Positions 2,545 through 23,605 of a DNA stretch of 33,836 bases are shown one piece after another. The position numbers and the translations under genes were made by a program. This DNA is from a virus: the UHGV virus genome UHGV-0391018; one strand, 5' to 3'. The notes beneath the pieces are model-generated. The model ran no database searches, was not told where the DNA came from, and was given only the letters and a program-made list of their open reading frames with translations. Positions within the stretch are counted from its first letter, which is position 1, and each line of letters begins with the position of its first letter.

Positions 2545-3858
2545 TTAACATGTTAATTGTTGACCCAAGTAAATCAAATTTGGATTCGAAATACCATTTT
2601 TTTGAGCCAATGCCTGATATGTCGTACCGAGTTTAGCTGCAATATCTGATAGAGTTTCACCATAGTTTACAGTGTATATTCGACTAATTGACGCTGTTCC
2701 GCTAACCTTCAGTTGTTGACCAATATAAATGTAATTCGGATTAGCTAGTCCGTTTAGGCTCGCTAACGCTTGATATGTTGTCCCATACTTAGTAGCAATA
2801 CCTGATAGAGTCTCACCCGAACGAACAATATGTGTCGATGTAGTAGTGCTTGGCGTTTGAGTGGTCGTTTGCAAGATTTCAACATCCTTGCGATTGATCC
2901 AGCTCATGATGCCATCGAGCAATACTTTCGTTCCGCTTACTTCCTTAACGGTGTAACTATTGCCTTTGACCCATTGAGGGATCGCTTGGCCGGTTGACCA
3001 AGTAGAAGCAGAGAAGTTCACTTTAACTTTGAATCCAGCTTTGATGTCATTCTTAGGCGTTTCGTTCGCTTGCTGACCTTGATCAATCGCAGGCGTTTCA
3101 GTATCAGGCTTCACAGTAACTTTGCCGTCATCGTCTTTGATAGCTCCGTTATAGCCGTTATCTGTAATACCTGTCAAATCAATATTACCGTCCAAGCCAC
3201 CAGCGACATACGTAGATGTAAACTGATAGATTGCTACGCCTTCCATGCTCGGAAAAACACTCCAGACAGGTTTTGGCGTTACATTGTAATTCGGATAGGC
3301 AGCCATCCACAACGAGTTAGGGAACTCCGCTAGAATTTGCTGATAGTTCACATACTGAAGCGTGAATGGTTTATACGAATAATACATCGGAGTGTAACCG
3401 GCTTGTTTAATTCGCCGCATGCCATACAAAATGGTTTCTGTATTGGCTTGTTTGTTGCTTGAAGCACCATGTTCAAAGTCAAGCGCTACGATTGACCCTT
3501 TCGGCGTTTGAATCTTAGGCAAAAAGTAATCCATTGTTGTTTTTGCAATACTCATACTTCCCCACGTGTCATACCAAATATAGGTATGCGCTCGTTTGCC
3601 TTGTGCGATCGTCGATGCTACTTGACTAGAATAAGTCCACTGATTGTACAAACCACCAGCATTGTATCCACCGATTTGACTAATCGAAAATTTATCCGAG
3701 CCATACCCAAATTTCCCTTGTGCTCCTTGATATACAGCCCAGTCAACGCCTTGATCCCCTTTCGCCGCTTGTACTGTACTTGGAAAAATTGGCAACAAAA
3801 AAAGAGCTACAATAGCTCCTACAATAATTTTCTTTTTCATGTATTCTCTCCTATTCAT
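2545..3858 (-). CDS. Endolysin: N-terminal Sec-type signal peptide, a GH25-like muramidase domain, a Thr/Ser linker and two C-terminal LysM repeats.
   Basis: [28 protein letters not shown] is a signal peptide with an AxA-like cleavage site. There are two repeats of the form ...YTV/[28 protein letters not shown]...NPNxIYxGQQL. It sits immediately downstream of the holin. Confidence 0.8.
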
Positions 3859-4066
3859 CTGCTGAAAACATCTTGTATGTTCGATTTGATACCCCCAAAA
3901 CGGTTCCCAAAAAAGTGCCTAGCGCTGTGATAATGATTACCGTGATATCGGTGTACTTCCAATTAACCGCCTTTCCTACCACACCAACAAATGTCGCCAG
4001 CGCAGGAATGGCAATTGCGGCCACCCATTTCAAAATTTCAAACGTCTTATTTTGCATTATTCTCAC
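3851..4066 (-). CDS. Holin (71 aa, two TM segments; phi-LC3/small class II-like).
   Basis: It has two hydrophobic helices and a charged C-terminus. It overlaps the lysin start, and this position is conserved in lysis cassettes. Confidence 0.65.
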
Positions 4067-4419
4067 CCCCTCAAAAATTTAAGCAATTCCAGTACGAATG
4101 CAAATACAACGCCAGCACCACCACCAATTCCCAAGATTAGTTTCCATATGTTAGTCTTATCAATCATACGTAGTTCGTGCTTATGCTCCTCTTCTTCTTT
4201 GTTACGATTTAGGACCTCTCTCAAAATTTCAGCGTTTTGTTCCGATTGGCGCGTATTTTGTTCTCGCAAAAATCTATTTGATTCATCCACACGAGCAAGC
4301 CCTTCGTTCATTGATTTTTGCATTTCTATTGAAAGGTCATTTAAGCGACTGATTTCTTTGTCGTGTTGCTTAAGCTTATCTTCGTGCTGTTTTACCTGAG
4401 CTTCAAGTTCCATTCCCAC
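4063..4419 (-). CDS. xhlA: XhlA-family protein (coiled-coil N-terminus plus a C-terminal TM segment), a lysis-associated membrane protein.
   Basis: The N-terminal coiled coil EAQVKQHEDKLKQHDKEISRLN... is followed by the C-terminal TM stretch ILGIGGGAGVVFAFVLELLKFL. It has the position and architecture of PBSX XhlA upstream of the holin. Confidence 0.6.
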   Translation of the reverse strand: MGMELEAQVKQHEDKLKQHDKEISRLNDLSIEMQKSMNEGLARVDESNRFLREQNTRQSEQNAEILREVLNRNKEEEEHKHELRMIDKTNIWKLILGIGGGAGVVFAFVLELLKFLRG

Positions 4420-4488: not shown

Positions 4489-6294
4489 TTAAGGCGCTAA
4501 CATAATTGATCCACTAAATGCTAGATACTCATCTGCTTCCAATGCAGAGATTGTCCTAAAATTACCGCCATTAGAAGAAATTAAAAATCTTTTTGCGTAT
4601 GGAGCCTTATCAGATATCGCTAATATATTCCCAGCATTGTTTAGAGGTACTTTTCCTCCTAAATCAGGGACAAATAAATCTGTTAATGCAGCTTGTGCCG
4701 TCTTCACTGTGACTGTTCCATTCACAATTAATATCGGTCCACGTCTCATGAATGATATTTGCCCACTACGCATAAAAGCTGCTGAAAATACATTGCTGGT
4801 AGCAATTTCATTTTCACGGGCATCTAACACTTCTTTTACTCGTAAAGCTGACATAATCTTTGTATTTTCAACTCCAGCTAACGCTTCCTCACTTGATGCC
4901 ACGGCATTTCCGCCAGAACCTAGCGTCGAAATCACATCTGCTACACGTAAAGGAGTCATTATTTTATCATTTGATTTCCCGTCAAGTGCTTCTTCTTTTG
5001 TAGCAATATTTTCTCCATGATAGGCCGCTATCATGTATTCAAAATGTTCATTAGCAGATAGCTCAATAGTGACATCAAGACACAGATAATCAATATTCAC
5101 TGTTGAATAGTTTGGACTAATCGTGGGCTCACTGTTGCTTAAAACAGAGATTTTTCCGCCATTAATCAATTTCTTCCAGTTAGTATCGGTACTTTCTATA
5201 GTCTGACCAATTCTGGTAACTTCGTTTGCTGCGGTAGAATCACTAACCGTCCATGTTCCATTCCAATTACGATGAGTAAGTTTATTAATACCGCCACCAG
5301 AGCCATAACCGTAAACATTTGAAGTGAAATCAGTTATTAAACTTTCTAATACTTCTACTTTTTGAGAATCAGTAGTCGCTCCACGAATAGTAAAGAACTT
5401 CTCACCCAAAAGTGATTTAAAGAAACCAAGAATATCACAATCATATTTGAGTTGTTTCATATAATTAGCAGCGACATCTCTAGCAGAGTAAAGACTTCCG
5501 TCCAAAGAAGATAAGTTGTTCAATTGTTCTTCTGTCAATGGTGTCCAACTCACATTCGTTGGTGATAATAAAGTTGTGTAACCTACTGACGAAACCTTAA
5601 CAAACTCACTTTTTGCATCCAGTCTAAAAGTTATTTCAGCTTTTTCTTTCCCAATTACTTGGTAGATCACGTTTGCGGAACTTTCTTCTTTATTGAAACT
5701 CTCTTCTTTTGTCCAGAAGTTCCCGTTCTCAAAATCCGTTAAGTCTTGATCAATTTTATTGCGTAAATCATTTATTTGAACCTCCAGTTCAGAGATTCTC
5801 CCTTGAGCTTCAGTGAAGTTACGATTCATTTCGTCAATAGCTTGATTTTGAAGTTCATTTAATTCAGCTACTAGTTTATTGTATTCAGTGATTATCGTTT
5901 CTGCTTCTGGGGCATCAATATCAGCATTACCATCTACATAGATTTCAAAACCTGCTGTACTGTCTCGTTTGCCATCTTTAACGATAGAAAAATACGCTTG
6001 TTCATACTTCCCGGCAACAGCAAAAGCCATGTTAGGAAAAGTATAATCAAACGTACCTTTTTTCAACCCTTCAGGTGTACTACTTATGTTATTTGAGTCA
6101 AAAACTTTAGTTTGCCTATTATATGTTGTTCCTTCAAAGGTTATATCATAACCAGTAAGGTCAGCGACTTCATCTCTCCTAGTCAAATTAACAGTGACAG
6201 TTTGTAAACGATCATCGCCAACGCGTCCATAAACAATTGCAGGCATGATTGGATCTTTAGACAGGTCAAGATTAAGTATTTTATTACTCATCAA
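4489..6294 (-). CDS. Receptor-binding protein, tail fiber or upper baseplate protein (601 aa), with a central coiled coil.
   Basis: It is the last gene of the tail module, after Tal. It has a BppU-like N-terminus and a heptad-repeat segment (...ITEYNKLVAELNELQNQAIDEMNRNF...ISELEVQINDLRNKIDQ). Confidence 0.55.
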   Translation of the reverse strand: MMSNKILNLDLSKDPIMPAIVYGRVGDDRLQTVTVNLTRRDEVADLTGYDITFEGTTYNRQTKVFDSNNISSTPEGLKKGTFDYTFPNMAFAVAGKYEQAYFSIVKDGKRDSTAGFEIYVDGNADIDAPEAETIITEYNKLVAELNELQNQAIDEMNRNFTEAQGRISELEVQINDLRNKIDQDLTDFENGNFWTKEESFNKEESSANVIYQVIGKEKAEITFRLDAKSEFVKVSSVGYTTLLSPTNVSWTPLTEEQLNNLSSLDGSLYSARDVAANYMKQLKYDCDILGFFKSLLGEKFFTIRGATTDSQKVEVLESLITDFTSNVYGYGSGGGINKLTHRNWNGTWTVSDSTAANEVTRIGQTIESTDTNWKKLINGGKISVLSNSEPTISPNYSTVNIDYLCLDVTIELSANEHFEYMIAAYHGENIATKEEALDGKSNDKIMTPLRVADVISTLGSGGNAVASSEEALAGVENTKIMSALRVKEVLDARENEIATSNVFSAAFMRSGQISFMRRGPILIVNGTVTVKTAQAALTDLFVPDLGGKVPLNNAGNILAISDKAPYAKRFLISSNGGNFRTISALEADEYLAFSGSIMLAP

Positions 6295-16586: not shown

Positions 16587-17189
16587 TTATTCACCTAATC
16601 TTTCTTGAATTTTTTGTACGATTGTCTTATCACTGCCTTGACCGCCTCCAGAAGGATTTCCACCAGGGACGATTTCTGGCTTTTCTTTTGTGTTTGGATC
16701 GACTGATTCTTGAAACAAAAATGCTTTACTCTCTTTCAGACCATTCAGTTGCTCGTCTAAGCCTTGCAGTCCATTGTCAGTCACTTTGATCGTGTCGCGA
16801 TCCAACAGACCTAAAACAATACTTTCGTCTAACGCATTCGCTTCTTTCAAAGCAAGCTTAATTGCGAAGTCTTTTTGTTGCTCAGATAACTTAGTTTCCG
16901 ATTCAGATTTGATAGTGTTGAATTTACCTTGGAGATCTGCCAATTGTTGGGTGAGCTCTTCATTACCCTTTGCAGACTCCTTAAGCGAATTAAGTTCGGT
17001 TTGATTAGCTTCAAGCTGTTGGTTCGCGTTATCTCTTTCACTCTGAACAGTGGATAATTGAGTGTTCAGTGACGTAACAGTTTTACCATGCAAAGCCATC
17101 ACCGATTTTGCCGTTTCTTCATCGATACCTAGTTCCAATAAATCTTCTTTCTTCATGTTGTTTCCTCCTAAGTGTTTTTTGAGTGGCAA
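16587..17189 (-). CDS. Scaffolding protein.
   Basis: It is an acidic coiled-coil protein between the morphogenesis protein and the MCP. Confidence 0.65.
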
Positions 17190-17240: not shown

Positions 17241-18398
17241 TTAAAAATCGTCGTACCTAAAATCTTTTAGTAGTGTATTGATAGGCGTGTAAACTTTCTC
17301 GCGTGCATAATTCCGGCTTAAATACTCATTGGAATTAACAAGATCCCGCATAGCAGACTGAGCCGCTCTGACCTTCTGACCCCAAGCTTTCGCGCTATCG
17401 GTTTGCCCAAGTGCCTCAGCAACTGCCTGATTCTTTTTCAATTTAACAATCTGGCGCTCTAATGCTCGTTGCCTTTTGATCAACTCGGCTACTTTAGCAT
17501 TTTCTTTTTCGTCAAACTTAGGCTGATTATTTTCATTTACACCGGGAATATATGGGATATGCAGATGAGCACAATTGACCCCTCTATGACCACTAGCTGT
17601 GCCGTAGTCGGCTTTCCAGTATGGATCATAAATACTACGGTACTCGCTGTCAGACGGTACAGATTCACGAAGATCAACAACGTGACCTTGTATCAATGAA
17701 CATGCTTGTCGAGCTCCCATGTGGCTCGTGACGATTACAGTGTGGACGCCATACTCTGCCATGCGATCCTTACGCAATTTGTCGTAAGTGTTATTTAGAG
17801 TAGATTTCAAAACAGTTCGAGCATATCGTTCTAAGCTCCATGTATGTCCGCCCTTGTCCACAAAAGTCGAGCGGATACCTTTTTGCGCCCATTCCCTAAT
17901 AGTTTTTTCTAACGCTTCCTCAAACGTAAAAAGACCGCTGTTAAAAGCAGCAGTCGTCTTGTTGATTATTTCGTTAAACATTTGAGTGGTCGCAGTGCCG
18001 TAACCAAAGTTCGTGGAGAGCAGCGTTTGATTGACGTAATTGTTTAGCTCGCTCCACACTTGATCGTGGTAGGCTTTCATTATGTTATCAAGATCGTTCG
18101 GCAGTTGGTGCGGATCATAAGGCATCTGCTTGTCAATATCTCGGACGATTTTCTCGCCGGAACTTTCAAACATCCTCGTCACTTCTGATTCCGCGATACC
18201 GGTGATCTGAGAAATGACCTTGATCGCATCCTTATTGAAAAGATGCAGCTCTTGCAGCTTTTCGCGTTGCCAATCAAGTATATTTTCGTGCCCTGTATTC
18301 AGACGCTTTGCAATCAGACGTATCAGTTCGCCTTCTAATGACTGATAGAGATGAGCCATGTTACTAGACCATAAATCTAGTTGATGCGGTGTGATCAT
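17241..18398 (-). CDS. Head morphogenesis protein (SPP1 gp7 / Mu F-like minor capsid protein).
   Basis: It is the conserved gene immediately after the portal. Confidence 0.6.
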   Translation of the reverse strand: MITPHQLDLWSSNMAHLYQSLEGELIRLIAKRLNTGHENILDWQREKLQELHLFNKDAIKVISQITGIAESEVTRMFESSGEKIVRDIDKQMPYDPHQLPNDLDNIMKAYHDQVWSELNNYVNQTLLSTNFGYGTATTQMFNEIINKTTAAFNSGLFTFEEALEKTIREWAQKGIRSTFVDKGGHTWSLERYARTVLKSTLNNTYDKLRKDRMAEYGVHTVIVTSHMGARQACSLIQGHVVDLRESVPSDSEYRSIYDPYWKADYGTASGHRGVNCAHLHIPYIPGVNENNQPKFDEKENAKVAELIKRQRALERQIVKLKKNQAVAEALGQTDSAKAWGQKVRAAQSAMRDLVNSNEYLSRNYAREKVYTPINTLLKDFRYDDF

Positions 18399-21466: not shown

Positions 21467-21986
21467 CTATATCACTCTCCACAATAGGCAGATTAACCAA
21501 AGCATCCAGGAGTTCGTTTTGTTGGGCGTTCTCTGACAATTTATTTGCTTTGTCTCGAAGAATGGCTGCCTCTGCTTGAGCTTTTTCGAGCTGTGCTTTT
21601 AACAACGGACTAGCATATTTCAAGAACAAATCAATTGCTTTTAATCTGTTTTCTAAATCCGGGGTATATTCGTATGTCATATCTTTAACGATTTTATTGC
21701 CCTCTAAGTGGTCTATTTGTTTGCTACGGCTAATTATCGTTTTTCCGTCATATATATCCAAAAGACTATTCAATTGTTCTTGTACATCCGTATTTCGCTT
21801 TTCAATGACGGGCGCTACCTTGCTAGCTATATACTCCACGACCTTAACATTTCTTAACAGTCGACTTGCTGTCGCTTCAGCGGTTTTTTTGCTGTACCCA
21901 GCTTTGATGGCGGCTTGAGTTGCATTACCACCATTAATAATATACTCATCCGCAAAAGCTTTTTGTCTTGTGGTTAAGTTTGCCAC
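21450..21986 (-). CDS. terS: Terminase small subunit.
   Basis: The N-terminus MANLTTRQKAFADEYIINGGNATQAAIKAGYS is HTH-like and typical of TerS. It overlaps terL. Confidence 0.75.
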   Translation of the reverse strand: MANLTTRQKAFADEYIINGGNATQAAIKAGYSKKTAEATASRLLRNVKVVEYIASKVAPVIEKRNTDVQEQLNSLLDIYDGKTIISRSKQIDHLEGNKIVKDMTYEYTPDLENRLKAIDLFLKYASPLLKAQLEKAQAEAAILRDKANKLSENAQQNELLDALVNLPIVESDIDADKV

Positions 21987-22004
21987 ATCAACGCCACCAC
22001 CTCT

Positions 22005-22256
22005 CTATATGTATTTGCTGATGTTCTCTTGGGTATGTTCGTCTTTCCAATAACCGTACCCACAATAGACTAGCTTGCAATGATTAATCTCTACTGGCGT
22101 TGCTTCTCTGGTCATTTCGACAATTGAATACTTCGCCTTCATTTGAACAGACATCACTACACGTTTACGTTGTCCTTTCATTGGCTTCGGATATTTATTG
22201 TTTAATGACACATACCAGTAAGTTTTCATTGTTCTCAATTCCTTTTCTTTACCCAA
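22005..22256 (-). CDS. Hypothetical basic protein upstream of terS. The likely ATG start is at 22229, giving ~74 aa.
   Basis: The track start is a TTG. An internal ATG has an AAGGAA RBS. Confidence 0.4.
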   Translation of the reverse strand: MGKEKELRTMKTYWYVSLNNKYPKPMKGQRKRVVMSVQMKAKYSIVEMTREATPVEINHCKLVYCGYGYWKDEHTQENISKYI

Positions 22257-22327
22257 TAAGCATTGCAGTGCTACAATTTAGTCAGACAATCCTTTATAAA
22301 AATTGTTTTTCCAACTTGACCACTGCG

Positions 22328-22358
22328 GAAACTGTGGTCTTTTTTATTGAAAACTCAC
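22328..22358 (+). terminator. Plus-strand terminator-like hairpin, antisense to the late operon.
   Basis: GACCAC-TGCGGAAACT-GTGGTC followed by TTTTTTATT. Confidence 0.4.
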
Positions 22359-22395
22359 AATAACAGTGCTAATATTTTGTTACTTGTTACACGGA

Positions 22396-22430
22396 GGACT
22401 ATTGCGGAAACAGTAGCCCTCTTTTTTGTG
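22396..22430 (+). terminator. Second plus-strand terminator-like hairpin sharing the TGCGGAAAC loop motif.
   Basis: GGACTATTG-CGGAAA-CAGTAGCCC followed by TCTTTTTTGTG. Confidence 0.35.
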
Positions 22431-22432
22431 TT

Positions 22433-22461
22433 CAAAATAAAAAGACCGCCGAAGCGATCTT
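22433..22461 (-). terminator. Strong minus-strand intrinsic terminator with a UUCG tetraloop, ending the structured RNA element.
   Basis: Minus strand: AAGAUCGC-UUCG-GCGGUCUU followed by UUUUUAUUUUG. The G-U pair exists only in the minus-strand RNA, and the plus strand would have a C/A mismatch. Confidence 0.6.
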
Positions 22462-22900
22462 GATTATGTATTAAGCAACCTACATAGCACCGTCATCGTG
22501 CTGATCCTCCACGTACCACTTCTATCCTCGGTTGCATTAATTGACGCGGCCAGATTCGAACCGACCTCATTTCCAACTCTAACAGTCAGACGCATCACCA
22601 ACGATGCTGCACGTCAACTTGGAGGAGCTACCTCCTAGCATGCTGCTTAAGATTGCTTTTTCCCAACAGTAGCCCTGGAAAAAGATTAGTGGTCTGATTG
22701 CCTCACGCTACTGTTCAATCTCTAAGTCACTGGCAAGGAATCAAACCTTGCTCATCGGGAACGAGTCGTCACCTATCTATCCCTCAATAAGCTCCAACAC
22801 CCTACGTTTTTAGCATTGGCTACTTATGCGTTAATCCTTCCGCCACAGTGACATATTCGGCGGCACATGAACTTTAAACGAAATGAAGTTTTTCAACTCC
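22441..22900 (-). ncRNA. Large, highly structured non-coding RNA candidate of the ROOL/GOLLD ornate-RNA class, with an embedded tRNA-like T-arm/acceptor motif.
   Basis: There is no ORF of 60 aa or more on the minus strand across ~840 nt between ArpU and orf74. Many stems are G-U-containing and minus-strand-specific: GGUCGG-UUCGAAU-CUGGCC, GCAUC-GUUGGU-GAUGC, GGAGG-UAGCU-CCUCC, GCAAGG-UUUGAUU-CCUUGC, and GAUUG/AACAGUAGC...GCUACUGUU/CAAUC nested long-range stems. It ends at a UUCG-loop terminator. Confidence 0.5.
22871..22896 (-). promoter_or_regulatory. Candidate sigma-A promoter for the structured RNA: TTGAAA, 15 nt, TAAAGT, with an upstream A-tract.
   Basis: The minus-strand sequence TTGAAAaacttcatttcgtttAAAGTT is preceded by ACACAAAAAAAATAAAAG. 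Confidence 0.25.
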
Positions 22901-23092
22901 ATTCATCTTTTATTTTTTTTGTGTGCCGCCATTAAATCCACCAAGCTAGACGTATATATGTTAAGAGGTATAAGGAGAAACTTCATGCCAATAAAGTTAA
23001 GTTTGAGTCGTCTGCTTGGCGGATTAATCACATTTATTTCACGCTATCATAGTAACACTTTTAATGTACACTCGTGGCGCCACAAACGCGCC

Positions 23093-23605
23093 TTACAACC
23101 AATCAATTACAACATCCACTCCAAAGATAAATACTGATAGCTGTTCAACAGCTTTTTTTATCCACTTCCCTATCGTCCTTCGATCAACAGCGTATTTCGA
23201 AGCAATGTATTCATCAGCAAAACACTTAGGTAGCAAGTACTTCATGTTTAAAATATCATAGGCTCGCTCATCCTCTGCTTTTAGTTCAACTAAAGCCTTA
23301 TCAACATGTTTCATTAATTTTGCTGTTTTCGCCTTATGTTCTAGTAGACTATCTACATCAAAGCGCCAGTCATTCCACATTGAAGCGAAATCCTCTTCGA
23401 CTTGCTCCTCTACTATTTTGCAGTGAGTTTTTAATCTGTAGTAATTCCTCAAGAGCGTCCTTGTATTATGGTATGAATTGGACCTTAGCTCTTTTCGCCT
23501 TTGCTTAGTCGCTTCCACTAACCTAGCAACTACTTTCTCAGCGATCATATCTAGCTGAGATTCTGGCAGTTCATGTACTTGAATTTCCAAATCGTTTCCT
23601 CCCAA
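23093..23605 (-). CDS. arpU: ArpU-family late transcriptional activator.
   Basis: It is about 170 aa and lies immediately upstream of the packaging module. A sigma-70 region 4-like C-terminus is read in ...RRTIGKWIKKAVEQL.... The family is typical of Enterococcus, Listeria and Lactococcus phages. Confidence 0.65.
   Translation of the reverse strand: MGGNDLEIQVHELPESQLDMIAEKVVARLVEATKQRRKELRSNSYHNTRTLLRNYYRLKTHCKIVEEQVEEDFASMWNDWRFDVDSLLEHKAKTAKLMKHVDKALVELKAEDERAYDILNMKYLLPKCFADEYIASKYAVDRRTIGKWIKKAVEQLSVFIFGVDVVIDWL

Follow-up and report, generated by a model that had tools for sequence, protein, structure and literature searches.

A candidate portable RNA cassette of Enterococcus phages, built of exchangeable modules and covarying tRNA-like frames

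The locus and the arrangement of its modules

The stretch of DNA analysed here (the window, 33,836 nucleotides of the virus genome UHGV-0391018) contains, between two minus-strand open reading frames (ORFs) of 170 and 83 amino acids, a gap of 836 nucleotides (nt) at 22257–23092, which a preceding reading of the letters alone (the original prediction) had described as an ORF-free, heavily structured non-coding locus on the minus strand and had attributed to one ornate RNA of the ROOL or GOLLD kind. The first part of this description is borne out, in that the gap contains short ORFs only, on either strand, none of which is conserved, and the minus strand folds with a minimum free energy (MFE) of −270.5 kcal/mol (z = −8.25 relative to dinucleotide shuffles) as against −216.9 (z = −4.74) for the plus strand, so that these scores, together with the G:U pairs, make the minus strand the favoured sense. 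The attribution to a single RNA does not stand. Read along the minus strand, the locus is a succession of modules in the order leader hairpins, element A, element B, element C and terminator (Table 1), in which A and B have covarying tRNA-like frames with an altered anticodon side and the terminator forms the 3' boundary. The hosts are Enterococcus, within the Lactobacillales as had been proposed, and the claim that the locus is discrete and ends at an intrinsic terminator also holds, the UUCG terminator at 22434–22461 being called by a terminator scan and the homology of the window with the related loci L003–L005 stopping exactly after it. The only gap ORF with a convincing Shine-Dalgarno sequence lies on the plus strand (22985–23137); its coding role was rejected, as in L006, a relative of 91% identity, a stop codon cuts it short after 13 codons.

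The modular character of the locus is seen in 11 viral contigs that encode the same upstream ORF at 98–100% identity. Downstream of that ORF the first ~266 nt are conserved and the segment that follows gives way to unrelated sequence of other length, while in the same contigs the tRNA-like unit is conserved, replaced or truncated and the terminator is conserved, which, together with the end of homology after the terminator, defines the locus as a mosaic of modules bounded by the terminator. Beside a 99%-identical upstream ORF the A variants have an identical frame and a wholly different interior (127, 116 or 88 nt in all), and the A interior, element B and the spacers are each swapped independently, which contradicts the claim of one ornate RNA. 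The types of A interior and the types of C reassort freely, and the same regulator stands beside three A-interior types; a co-evolution of the A interior with the regulator or with C was rejected on these grounds.

In temperate phages the cassette is positioned just upstream of the small-ORF/terS operon and after ArpU, RinA or sigma-like regulators, the genes identified there including ArpU (TIGR01637, at 130.6 bits), RinA (TIGR01636), Sigma70_r4 and the sigma-like ORF of the window; in another context the element upstream of the cassette is a divergent promoter. A, a spacer of ~147 nt, C and the terminator also occur inside tRNA arrays on virulent phage contigs of 105–155 kilobases (kb), which argues for an autonomous RNA gene unit that is not merely a leader.

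Table 1. Features of the gap and its surroundings, in minus-strand order
Feature	Position	Strand	Structure or sequence	Basis or remark
ORF, 170 amino acids, upstream of gap	23093–23605	minus		gene call
Gap under study	22257–23092	minus sense		between ORFs 23093–23605 and 22005–22256
Hairpin after upstream ORF	23076–23092	minus	GGCGC-GUUUGUG-GCGCC	directly after the stop codon; identical in 4/4 leader variants
Putative regulator-binding/promoter block	23046–23072	minus	direct repeats AGTGTAC / AGTGTTAC, then −10-like TATGAT, poor −35	suggested by sequence
Leader hairpin P1	22936–23024	minus	AUCCGCCAAGCAGACG paired with CGUCUAGCUUGGUGGAU; CU-rich loop of ~55 nt	MFE and centroid folds
Leader hairpin P2	22859–22930	minus	GGCGGCACA...UGUGCCGCC, inner stem AAUGGAGUU/AACUUCAUU	z = −3.4; adjoins A upstream
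Element A, tRNA-like RNA of 127 nt, predicted non-decoding	22726–22852	minus	cloverleaf fold	z = −3.2
A acceptor		minus	7 base pairs, GUCACUG/CAGUGAC, then UG	
A D arm		minus	GCGG-AAGGAUUAA-CGC	resembles type-II tRNA-Leu
A interior arm 1	22787–22827	minus	long hairpin	
A interior arm 2	22757–22783	minus	long hairpin	
A T arm	22733–22751	minus	GCAAGG-UUUGAUU-CCUUGC; 6 base pairs, 7-nt loop	abuts acceptor
Spacer hairpin H1	22651–22720	minus	contains one copy of the 12-mer AGGGCUACUGUU	z = −1.5; absent from related loci
5' leader hairpin of B	22621–22635	minus	GGAGG-UAGCU-CCUCC	kept directly upstream of B-family tRNAs in L008, L011, L015, EH-TP1 and L140
Element B, Lys-type tRNA derivative of 76 nt	22541–22616	minus	cloverleaf	Rfam tRNA 23.9 bits, E = 0.0078
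Element C	22475–22535	minus	hairpin frame GCAACCGAGG...AUGUAGGUUGC around variable G/A-rich interior	z = −3.6 together with terminator
Intrinsic terminator	22434–22461	minus	AAGAUCGC-UUCG-GCGGUCUU, then U tract	terminator scan; 3' boundary of cassette
Post-terminator region	22318–22421	minus	two hairpins (22394–22421, 22318–22339) with GUUUCCGC loops	similar hairpins in L003 and L008
ORF, 83 amino acids, downstream of gap	22005–22256	minus		followed by TerS (PF03592) and TerL (TIGR01547)

Elements A, B and C and the parts that flank them

The family of element A was collected with sequence patterns that fixed part of the frame, applied to the IMG/VR viral contigs and to a genome collection; the IMG/VR contigs are redundant, and distinct sequences were counted. 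The frame was found in at least 120 viral loci, with 56 more from frame-pattern scans, and in the genome collection in 10 loci from 9 named Enterococcus species, including one Candidatus. Pattern matches outside Enterococcus, in L190 (a Streptosporangiaceae metagenome-assembled genome) and L193 (a 518-nt contig named 'Vibrio olivae'), probably arose by chance in the first case and from a contaminating contig in the second. The frame-pattern set comprises 93 distinct sequences of 87–140 nt whose interiors form ~35 unrelated clusters, all of them folding as the frame plus one to three hairpins, and in the window the two interior arms occupy the places of the anticodon and variable arms. Substitutions in the interior helices and in the T stem are compensatory within a cluster, and hardly any pairs are broken (for example, 3 of 496 and 0 of 390 cells).

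A looser scan, in which acceptor positions 1–4 were left free, gave 125 distinct sequences, in which 99.8% of the acceptor cells are paired (two are mismatched) and 98.4% of the T-stem cells. The acceptor reads GTCACTG/CAGTGAC in 90 of these, ATCGCTG/CAGCGAT in 13, GTCGCTG/CAGCGAC in nine and ATCACTG/CAGTGAT in three, with G:U wobble variants in eight and a mismatch in two, so that pair 1 is GC in 101, AU in 16 and GU in seven sequences and pair 4 is AU in 99 and GC in 24; the covariation at these two pairs is genuine. A descriptor search for other acceptors within the fetched loci had given noise-level matches only, and it was the looser scan of the collection that then found the covarying ones. 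Each of the T-stem positions 2–5 shows two to three Watson-Crick pair types. The loops are associated as well, in that D loops with GG accompany U54..A58 T loops and D loops without GG (AAGUAGAAGA) accompany GGCAGUG-type T loops, with counts by A-interior cluster of 16 and 17 on the diagonal versus 2 and 1 off it; this association fits a tRNA-like elbow, although common ancestry within each of two frame lineages might account for it as well.

At the level of secondary structure, A therefore has the acceptor/T-arm stack, the D arm and the elbow partners by which a tRNA-like fold is recognized. The hairpin that the original prediction had listed at 22733–22751 is present and is the T arm of this element, which had not been recognized there as a second tRNA-like unit. 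In a 331-nt search (22530–22860) A gave no Rfam tRNA match at E ≤ 10, ARAGORN called none of the 93 sequences as a tRNA, and no tmRNA was called by ARAGORN in the window or among the 93. The reading of element A as a frame derived from tRNA-Leu, with structured and hypervariable hairpins in place of the anticodon and variable arms, is well supported. Two A elements with different interiors lie ~110 nt apart in L019, L091, L102 and L123, and the virulent-phage contig L163 has two at separate places in its tRNA array.

Among sequenced phages, a blastn comparison matched 132 nt only (22721–22852), at 85% identity, in EfV12-phi1 and EFP01, virulent Enterococcus phages of the genus Schiekvirus in which the matching site is unannotated and lies within tRNA arrays. 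Recognizable copies in sequenced phage records were found only in these two and in EH-TP1, none of them annotated. In EH-TP1 (PQ571301; L196) the region 1400–2000 holds an A element (acceptor GUCGCUG), a canonical tRNA-Lys(UUU), C and the terminator, none of which is annotated in the record, so that even the canonical tRNA-Lys(UUU) is omitted.

Element B is the tRNA-like module that the original prediction had discerned, and the module does exist, except that it is one of two, the other, A, being the more unusual. Its predicted parts were all located: the T arm GGUCGG-UUCGAAU-CUGGCC (22548–22566) is followed by CGCGUCA, which pairs with UGACGUG to close the cloverleaf, the D arm GCAU-CGUUGGUG-AUGC lies at 22592–22607, and the hairpin GGAGG-UAGCU-CCUCC stands directly upstream. 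B has a 7-base-pair acceptor, a 4-base-pair D stem with G18G19 and a 5-base-pair T stem with a UUCGAAU loop. It has no canonical 7-nt anticodon loop with U33, since the anticodon stem UCUGA/UUGGA encloses a 9-nt loop, CUGUUAGAG, for which the alternative is a 7-nt loop, UGUUAGA, with G33 and the anticodon UUA. Its match to the Rfam tRNA model runs from end to end and stays below the 29-bit cut-off, with an enlarged anticodon loop and extra bases in the variable region, and ARAGORN did not call B in the window. Close homologues are called by ARAGORN as tRNA-Stop(tta), or tca in one lineage. Relatives of B have the acceptor UUGACGUG/CACGUCAA or, with compensatory changes, UUGGCGUG/CACGCCAA, and their anticodon loops range from a canonical tRNA-Lys(UUU), with the same acceptor as B, through an 8-nt UUUU loop, AAU or GAU with G33, CGA and UCA to truncated arms. 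In the family alignment 98.7% of the cells in the three standard arms are paired, versus 31–43% in slid controls, with five compensatory pairs, and the B of the window scores 80.9 bits with the B-family covariance model. With the standard code the genome of the phage is densely coding, and reading frames that continue beyond a TAA do not exceed the number expected by chance; a suppressor role of B is therefore unsupported, and stop-codon recoding was rejected. Two late-gene pairs (17241–18398 / 16587–17189 and 4489–6294 / 4063–4419, minus strand) lie in the same frame with only TAA and a stop-free spacer between them and would be fused by an ochre suppressor, such arrangements being found for 3 of 30 ORFs (one TAG case included), which is not above chance.

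Element C lies between B and the terminator, with a frame that may also be written GCAACCGAGG...GUAGGUUGC; as a family frame it reads GCAACYGAGG...GUGUAGGUUGC, and its interiors are rich in GUGG and GAGG motifs. The frame was found in 107 of 197 fetched loci (78 distinct sequences, ~13 G/A-rich interior types), following A by 5–50 nt in 62 of the 107 and usually standing directly upstream of the conserved terminator, an equivalent of which lies 3' of C in 116 of 177 loci. EH-TP1 has a compensatory change in the C frame, GCAAUC/GAUUGC. In some loci the C frame stands in tandem with another, C-like one (GGAACCUACGG...GGUGUAGGUU). A T-box-like reading of C, prompted by a visual resemblance of GUGGUAC to the T-box core, was dropped, as there was no Rfam match at E ≤ 10 and no alternative pairing or antiterminator.

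The segment upstream of A begins with ~70 nt that are invariant among four leader variants. They include the block at 23046–23072, whose direct repeats and TATGAT would suit a regulator site and promoter of the arrangement published for Ltr regulators, in which the binding repeats and the late promoter lie just distal to the regulator's own gene (PMC3753634). The ORF at 23093–23605, which had been labelled ArpU, has no TIGR01637 and no Pfam match, only weak sigma-70/ECF hits of 16–18 bits, so that the label is unverified; by position it corresponds to the late regulators, its place being taken in other loci by true ArpU, RinA and Sigma70_r4 proteins, and it may belong to an unclassified late-regulator family. 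In hairpin P1 the three substitutions found in L006 all keep the pairing, through G:U or A:U, on the minus strand only, and many unrelated contexts have, ahead of A, a counterpart of P2 whose outer stem covaries and after which a U tract usually comes. In L021, L050 and ~30 other loci the end of a 27-amino-acid hydrophobic ORF (MIPLIISIFALCLNVYMIGFKNGQNKK), which might encode a small membrane peptide, lies just upstream of A.

The nested stem that had been proposed at 22651–22720 (H1) does fold; it is the weakest of the predicted items, 16 of 200 shuffles folding equally well, and it is missing from related loci. The 12-mer repeat at 22665–22676 and 22409–22420 is real, with an estimated ~0.02 such repeats expected by chance in 836 nt, and places AGGGCUACUGUU in both H1 and the first post-terminator hairpin. 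The leader upstream of A in L008-type loci carries GCGGAAAC, the complement of the GUUUCCGC loops of the post-terminator hairpins; the shared AGGGCUACUGUU/GCGGAAAC elements could be sites of long-range RNA pairing or a repeated protein-binding site, and the post-terminator region may be a regulatory site at the DNA level. In L003–L005 (~1480–1700) and L006 (1240–1470) a 52-amino-acid FtsK-gamma-like ORF (MDDELISEARKIAIDFNGG...) with its own terminator is inserted directly after the cassette terminator. Far from the gap, at 2152–2223 on the minus strand, the window contains a third, aberrant tRNA (Rfam tRNA, 38.6 bits, the sole Rfam match at gathering score in the whole window), reported by ARAGORN as 'tRNA-???' with a 2-base anticodon, which corresponds to a 6-nt anticodon loop around CAU; it follows the last long minus-strand ORF of the late block (2545–3858), near the prophage end.

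Interpretation of the cassette and its alternatives

The interpretation to which we give a probability of roughly 0.55 is that the gap is a portable non-coding RNA cassette of Enterococcus phages, rather than a single giant RNA, and that its RNAs are processed and do not decode. In the mechanism proposed, transcription of the minus strand from a regulator-dependent promoter at ~23045 to the UUCG terminator (22434) would give an RNA of ~0.6 kb, from which A and B would be excised by the host RNase P and the tRNA 3'-end enzymes, as the complete acceptor/T-arm stack kept by both suggests. CCA would then be added to the excised elements, allowing them to accumulate as stable tRNA-shaped RNAs unable to decode. 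It is speculated, and advanced only tentatively, that the tRNA frame is a handle for the tRNA-binding machinery and that the RNAs divert, as decoys or competitors, those host factors by which tRNAs are attacked or used, e.g. anticodon nucleases or toxins modifying the acceptor end, in which case an arms race would lie behind the continual replacement of the anticodon-side arm. This idea is suggested by the diversification of the interiors on a constant frame, by that of the B lineage in its anticodon loop, and by the carriage of the elements in temperate as well as virulent phages. Another conjecture, which we would likewise not put at even odds, is a scaffold-and-cargo system, in which the constant frame secures processing, stability and recognition, the at least 35 arm types are swapped via recombination in the frame, and the arms are trans-acting effectors, each of them for instance an aptamer-like inhibitor or a decoy directed against a distinct host defence or a competing phage; C, which likewise combines a conserved frame with a variable interior, would in that case be another scaffold built on this principle.

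It should be said that several points weigh against this interpretation. The base following the A acceptor varies (U in 145, A in 46, G in eight and C in one), which argues against a strict aminoacylation identity, and the constancy of the frame is partly a matter of ascertainment, as the search patterns fixed part of it and positions 1–4 alone were left free. B-type genes, as detected with the B-family covariance model, accompany A in only ~22 of 100 sources carrying it, so that A and B need not work together and an obligatory A–B pairing was rejected. The cleavage by RNase P, the addition of CCA and the stability of the products would follow from general knowledge of tRNA-like substrates, and a consensus promoter scan did not call a promoter at 23046–23072. 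There is no antisense match of 13 nt or more inside the phage, the longest complementarity to sense transcripts being 11–12 nt, which is the chance level and led to the rejection of antisense regulation of the phage's own genes; the arms of element A have no match in sequenced phages apart from their homologues, and nothing points to a target of the arms. Finally, in most temperate-phage loci the terminator lies 10–20 nt before the Shine-Dalgarno sequence and the ATG with which the packaging operon begins, its first ORF being homologous to the small ORF of the window and followed by terS, and the cassette could on that account be mainly a cis-acting leader or attenuator.

This last alternative, in which the structured RNA, C and the terminator attenuate read-through into the small ORF, terS and terL, and the tRNA-like parts are RNase P processing or stabilizing signals, is considered unlikely. 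A precedent exists in phage lambda, where a short late leader RNA stops at tR'. The cassette stands between a late regulator and the packaging genes in every temperate-phage context, the short distance between terminator and first late ORF leaves no room for a separate promoter in most loci, and the site of action of Ltr regulators adjoins the distal end of the gene that encodes them (PMC3753634). Such a leader would not be expected in the virulent-phage tRNA arrays, where the A–spacer–C–terminator unit heads no packaging operon, nor would a simple processing signal need hypervariable yet structurally kept interiors; in the window itself 180 nt and two hairpins separate the terminator from the next ORF, and inspection by eye found no antiterminator alternative to the terminator helix. 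The idea that A and B are decayed genes of a phage tRNA cluster, and the modules non-functional mosaic junctions or recombination scars, is less probable still. It would account for the failure of both elements to pass curated tRNA thresholds, for truncated relatives such as the B of L006, which lacks half its anticodon arm, or the 62-nt forms, and for the third aberrant tRNA in what is, as phage genomes are, a mosaic. Pseudogenes would, however, not keep their pairing as the acceptor and T stem of A do across 125 distinct sequences, with compensatory changes that also maintain the interior helices and with D-loop and T-loop types that co-vary, and phages of many Enterococcus species, temperate ones as well as virulent ones, have retained the family.

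That the elements are functional decoding tRNAs, B being an ochre suppressor and A a tRNA-Leu from which an intervening sequence is removed, is very unlikely. The ARAGORN names of the B homologues point that way, as do the Leu-type D arm of A, one interior type that starts CUUAAAAAUAAG, like the anticodon loop of tRNA-Leu(UAA), and the one A sequence of 93 that ARAGORN reads, with the intron option, as a tRNA-Leu with a 27-nt intron. The B loop, with G33 or a length of 9 nt, and the chance frequency of extensions past TAA in a densely coded, standard-code genome stand against B as a suppressor, and as to A, the interiors share neither an anticodon stem nor a splice-site structure and 92 of 93 sequences fail even with introns allowed. 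A relaxed threshold gave inconsistent identities, and an intron-containing tRNA was rejected; in bacteria, no tRNA introns are known other than those of group I, which are longer than 200 nt. The original assignment to ROOL or GOLLD, as one large ornate RNA, is scarcely to be credited any longer. A size of ~0.6 kb, a Lactobacillales prophage, a very strong fold and an embedded tRNA-like unit had made it attractive, all the more as GOLLD loci often adjoin or contain tRNAs. Cmscan with the covariance models of Rfam 15 matched neither family, whether at gathering score in the whole window, at E ≤ 10 in 21900–23400, or in five related loci. The matches that did appear at E ≤ 10 (STnc130, rsmX, Trp leader, RefA1 and others) were rejected as terminator-driven or noise, with 13–26 bits against cut-offs of 41–94. 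Furthermore, the modules are exchanged independently and occur separately, and there is no conserved long-range helix between them, the long-range pairs of the MFE structure being lost in module-swapped variants.

With a portable cassette as the preferred interpretation, what has been described is a conserved, structured and diversifying class of RNA in a phage group of clinical relevance, which stands unannotated in Enterococcus prophages and in virulent phages of the therapeutic type (Schiekvirus) and is missed by tRNA finders and Rfam, the annotation of phage genomes consisting almost entirely of proteins and canonical tRNAs. Should the frame indeed serve as a handle and the arm as an effector or decoy, phages would have a new means of host takeover or counter-defence that operates at the level of RNA, and this would explain why they retain 'broken' tRNAs. 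The A family offers short molecules of 90–140 nt that are open to direct experiment.

Relation to known RNAs

Rfam holds no family for A or C, and a literature search that included the frame sequence, with subscription journals outside its coverage, found no description of the A-frame family, which is apparently undescribed; none of the nearest known systems is known to combine a constant tRNA frame and dozens of arms that can be exchanged. The ROOL and GOLLD RNAs are prophage-borne in Lactobacillales, large, highly structured and sometimes associated with tRNAs, ROOL with a conserved multi-stem architecture of ~580 nt and GOLLD with a conserved 3' half that contains pseudoknots; the present locus differs from them in being modular rather than one conserved fold, and in giving no match to their covariance models. 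In phage T4, RNAC and RNAD (species 1 and 2) are small non-tRNA RNAs co-transcribed with the phage tRNA genes, with a role that is unknown (PMC3014915). The likeness of element A to these is positional only, in that A is also found inside tRNA arrays (in Schiekvirus), and its complete tRNA frame with dozens of interchangeable interiors, not reported for RNAC or RNAD, sets the Enterococcus family apart by description and not by sequence.

Ordinary phage tRNAs and tRNA arrays are another comparison, as B belongs to a phage tRNA-Lys lineage with canonical UUU members, and both A and B have acceptor, D and T arms as these do. They differ from them in that the anticodon loop of B is non-canonical and its score below thresholds, whereas A has no anticodon arm at all. 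Among such phage tRNAs is the tRNA-Tyr of phage T5, which reportedly may replace host tRNA cut by an anticodon nuclease (retron Ec78). The C4 antisense RNA of P1 and P7 and the CI RNA of P4 are matured by RNase P from a longer transcript and owe their specificity to variable loops. They are found in proteobacterial hosts and have no full tRNA frame, and the window has neither a match to the Rfam C4 model nor a complementary target in the same phage.

Mimicry of tRNA is known from YrlA, a bacterial Y RNA-like molecule that is bound by Rsr and resembles the elbow and acceptor of a tRNA. The Ro-binding stem of YrlA is made of its 5' and 3' ends, whereas the termini of element A form an acceptor instead; no Rfam match to YrlA or Y RNA was found in the window, in which the rsr gene was not searched for. 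YrlA has also been discussed for a Listeria phage (PMC12282133). The architecture of element A, finally, is that of the engineered tRNA scaffold, from which it differs in being natural, diversified and phage-borne rather than a laboratory device. In that device, a recombinant RNA is inserted in the anticodon stem and the tRNA frame secures its processing and stability; if the frame of A does the same for its arms, the family would be a natural equivalent of this tool of RNA engineering.

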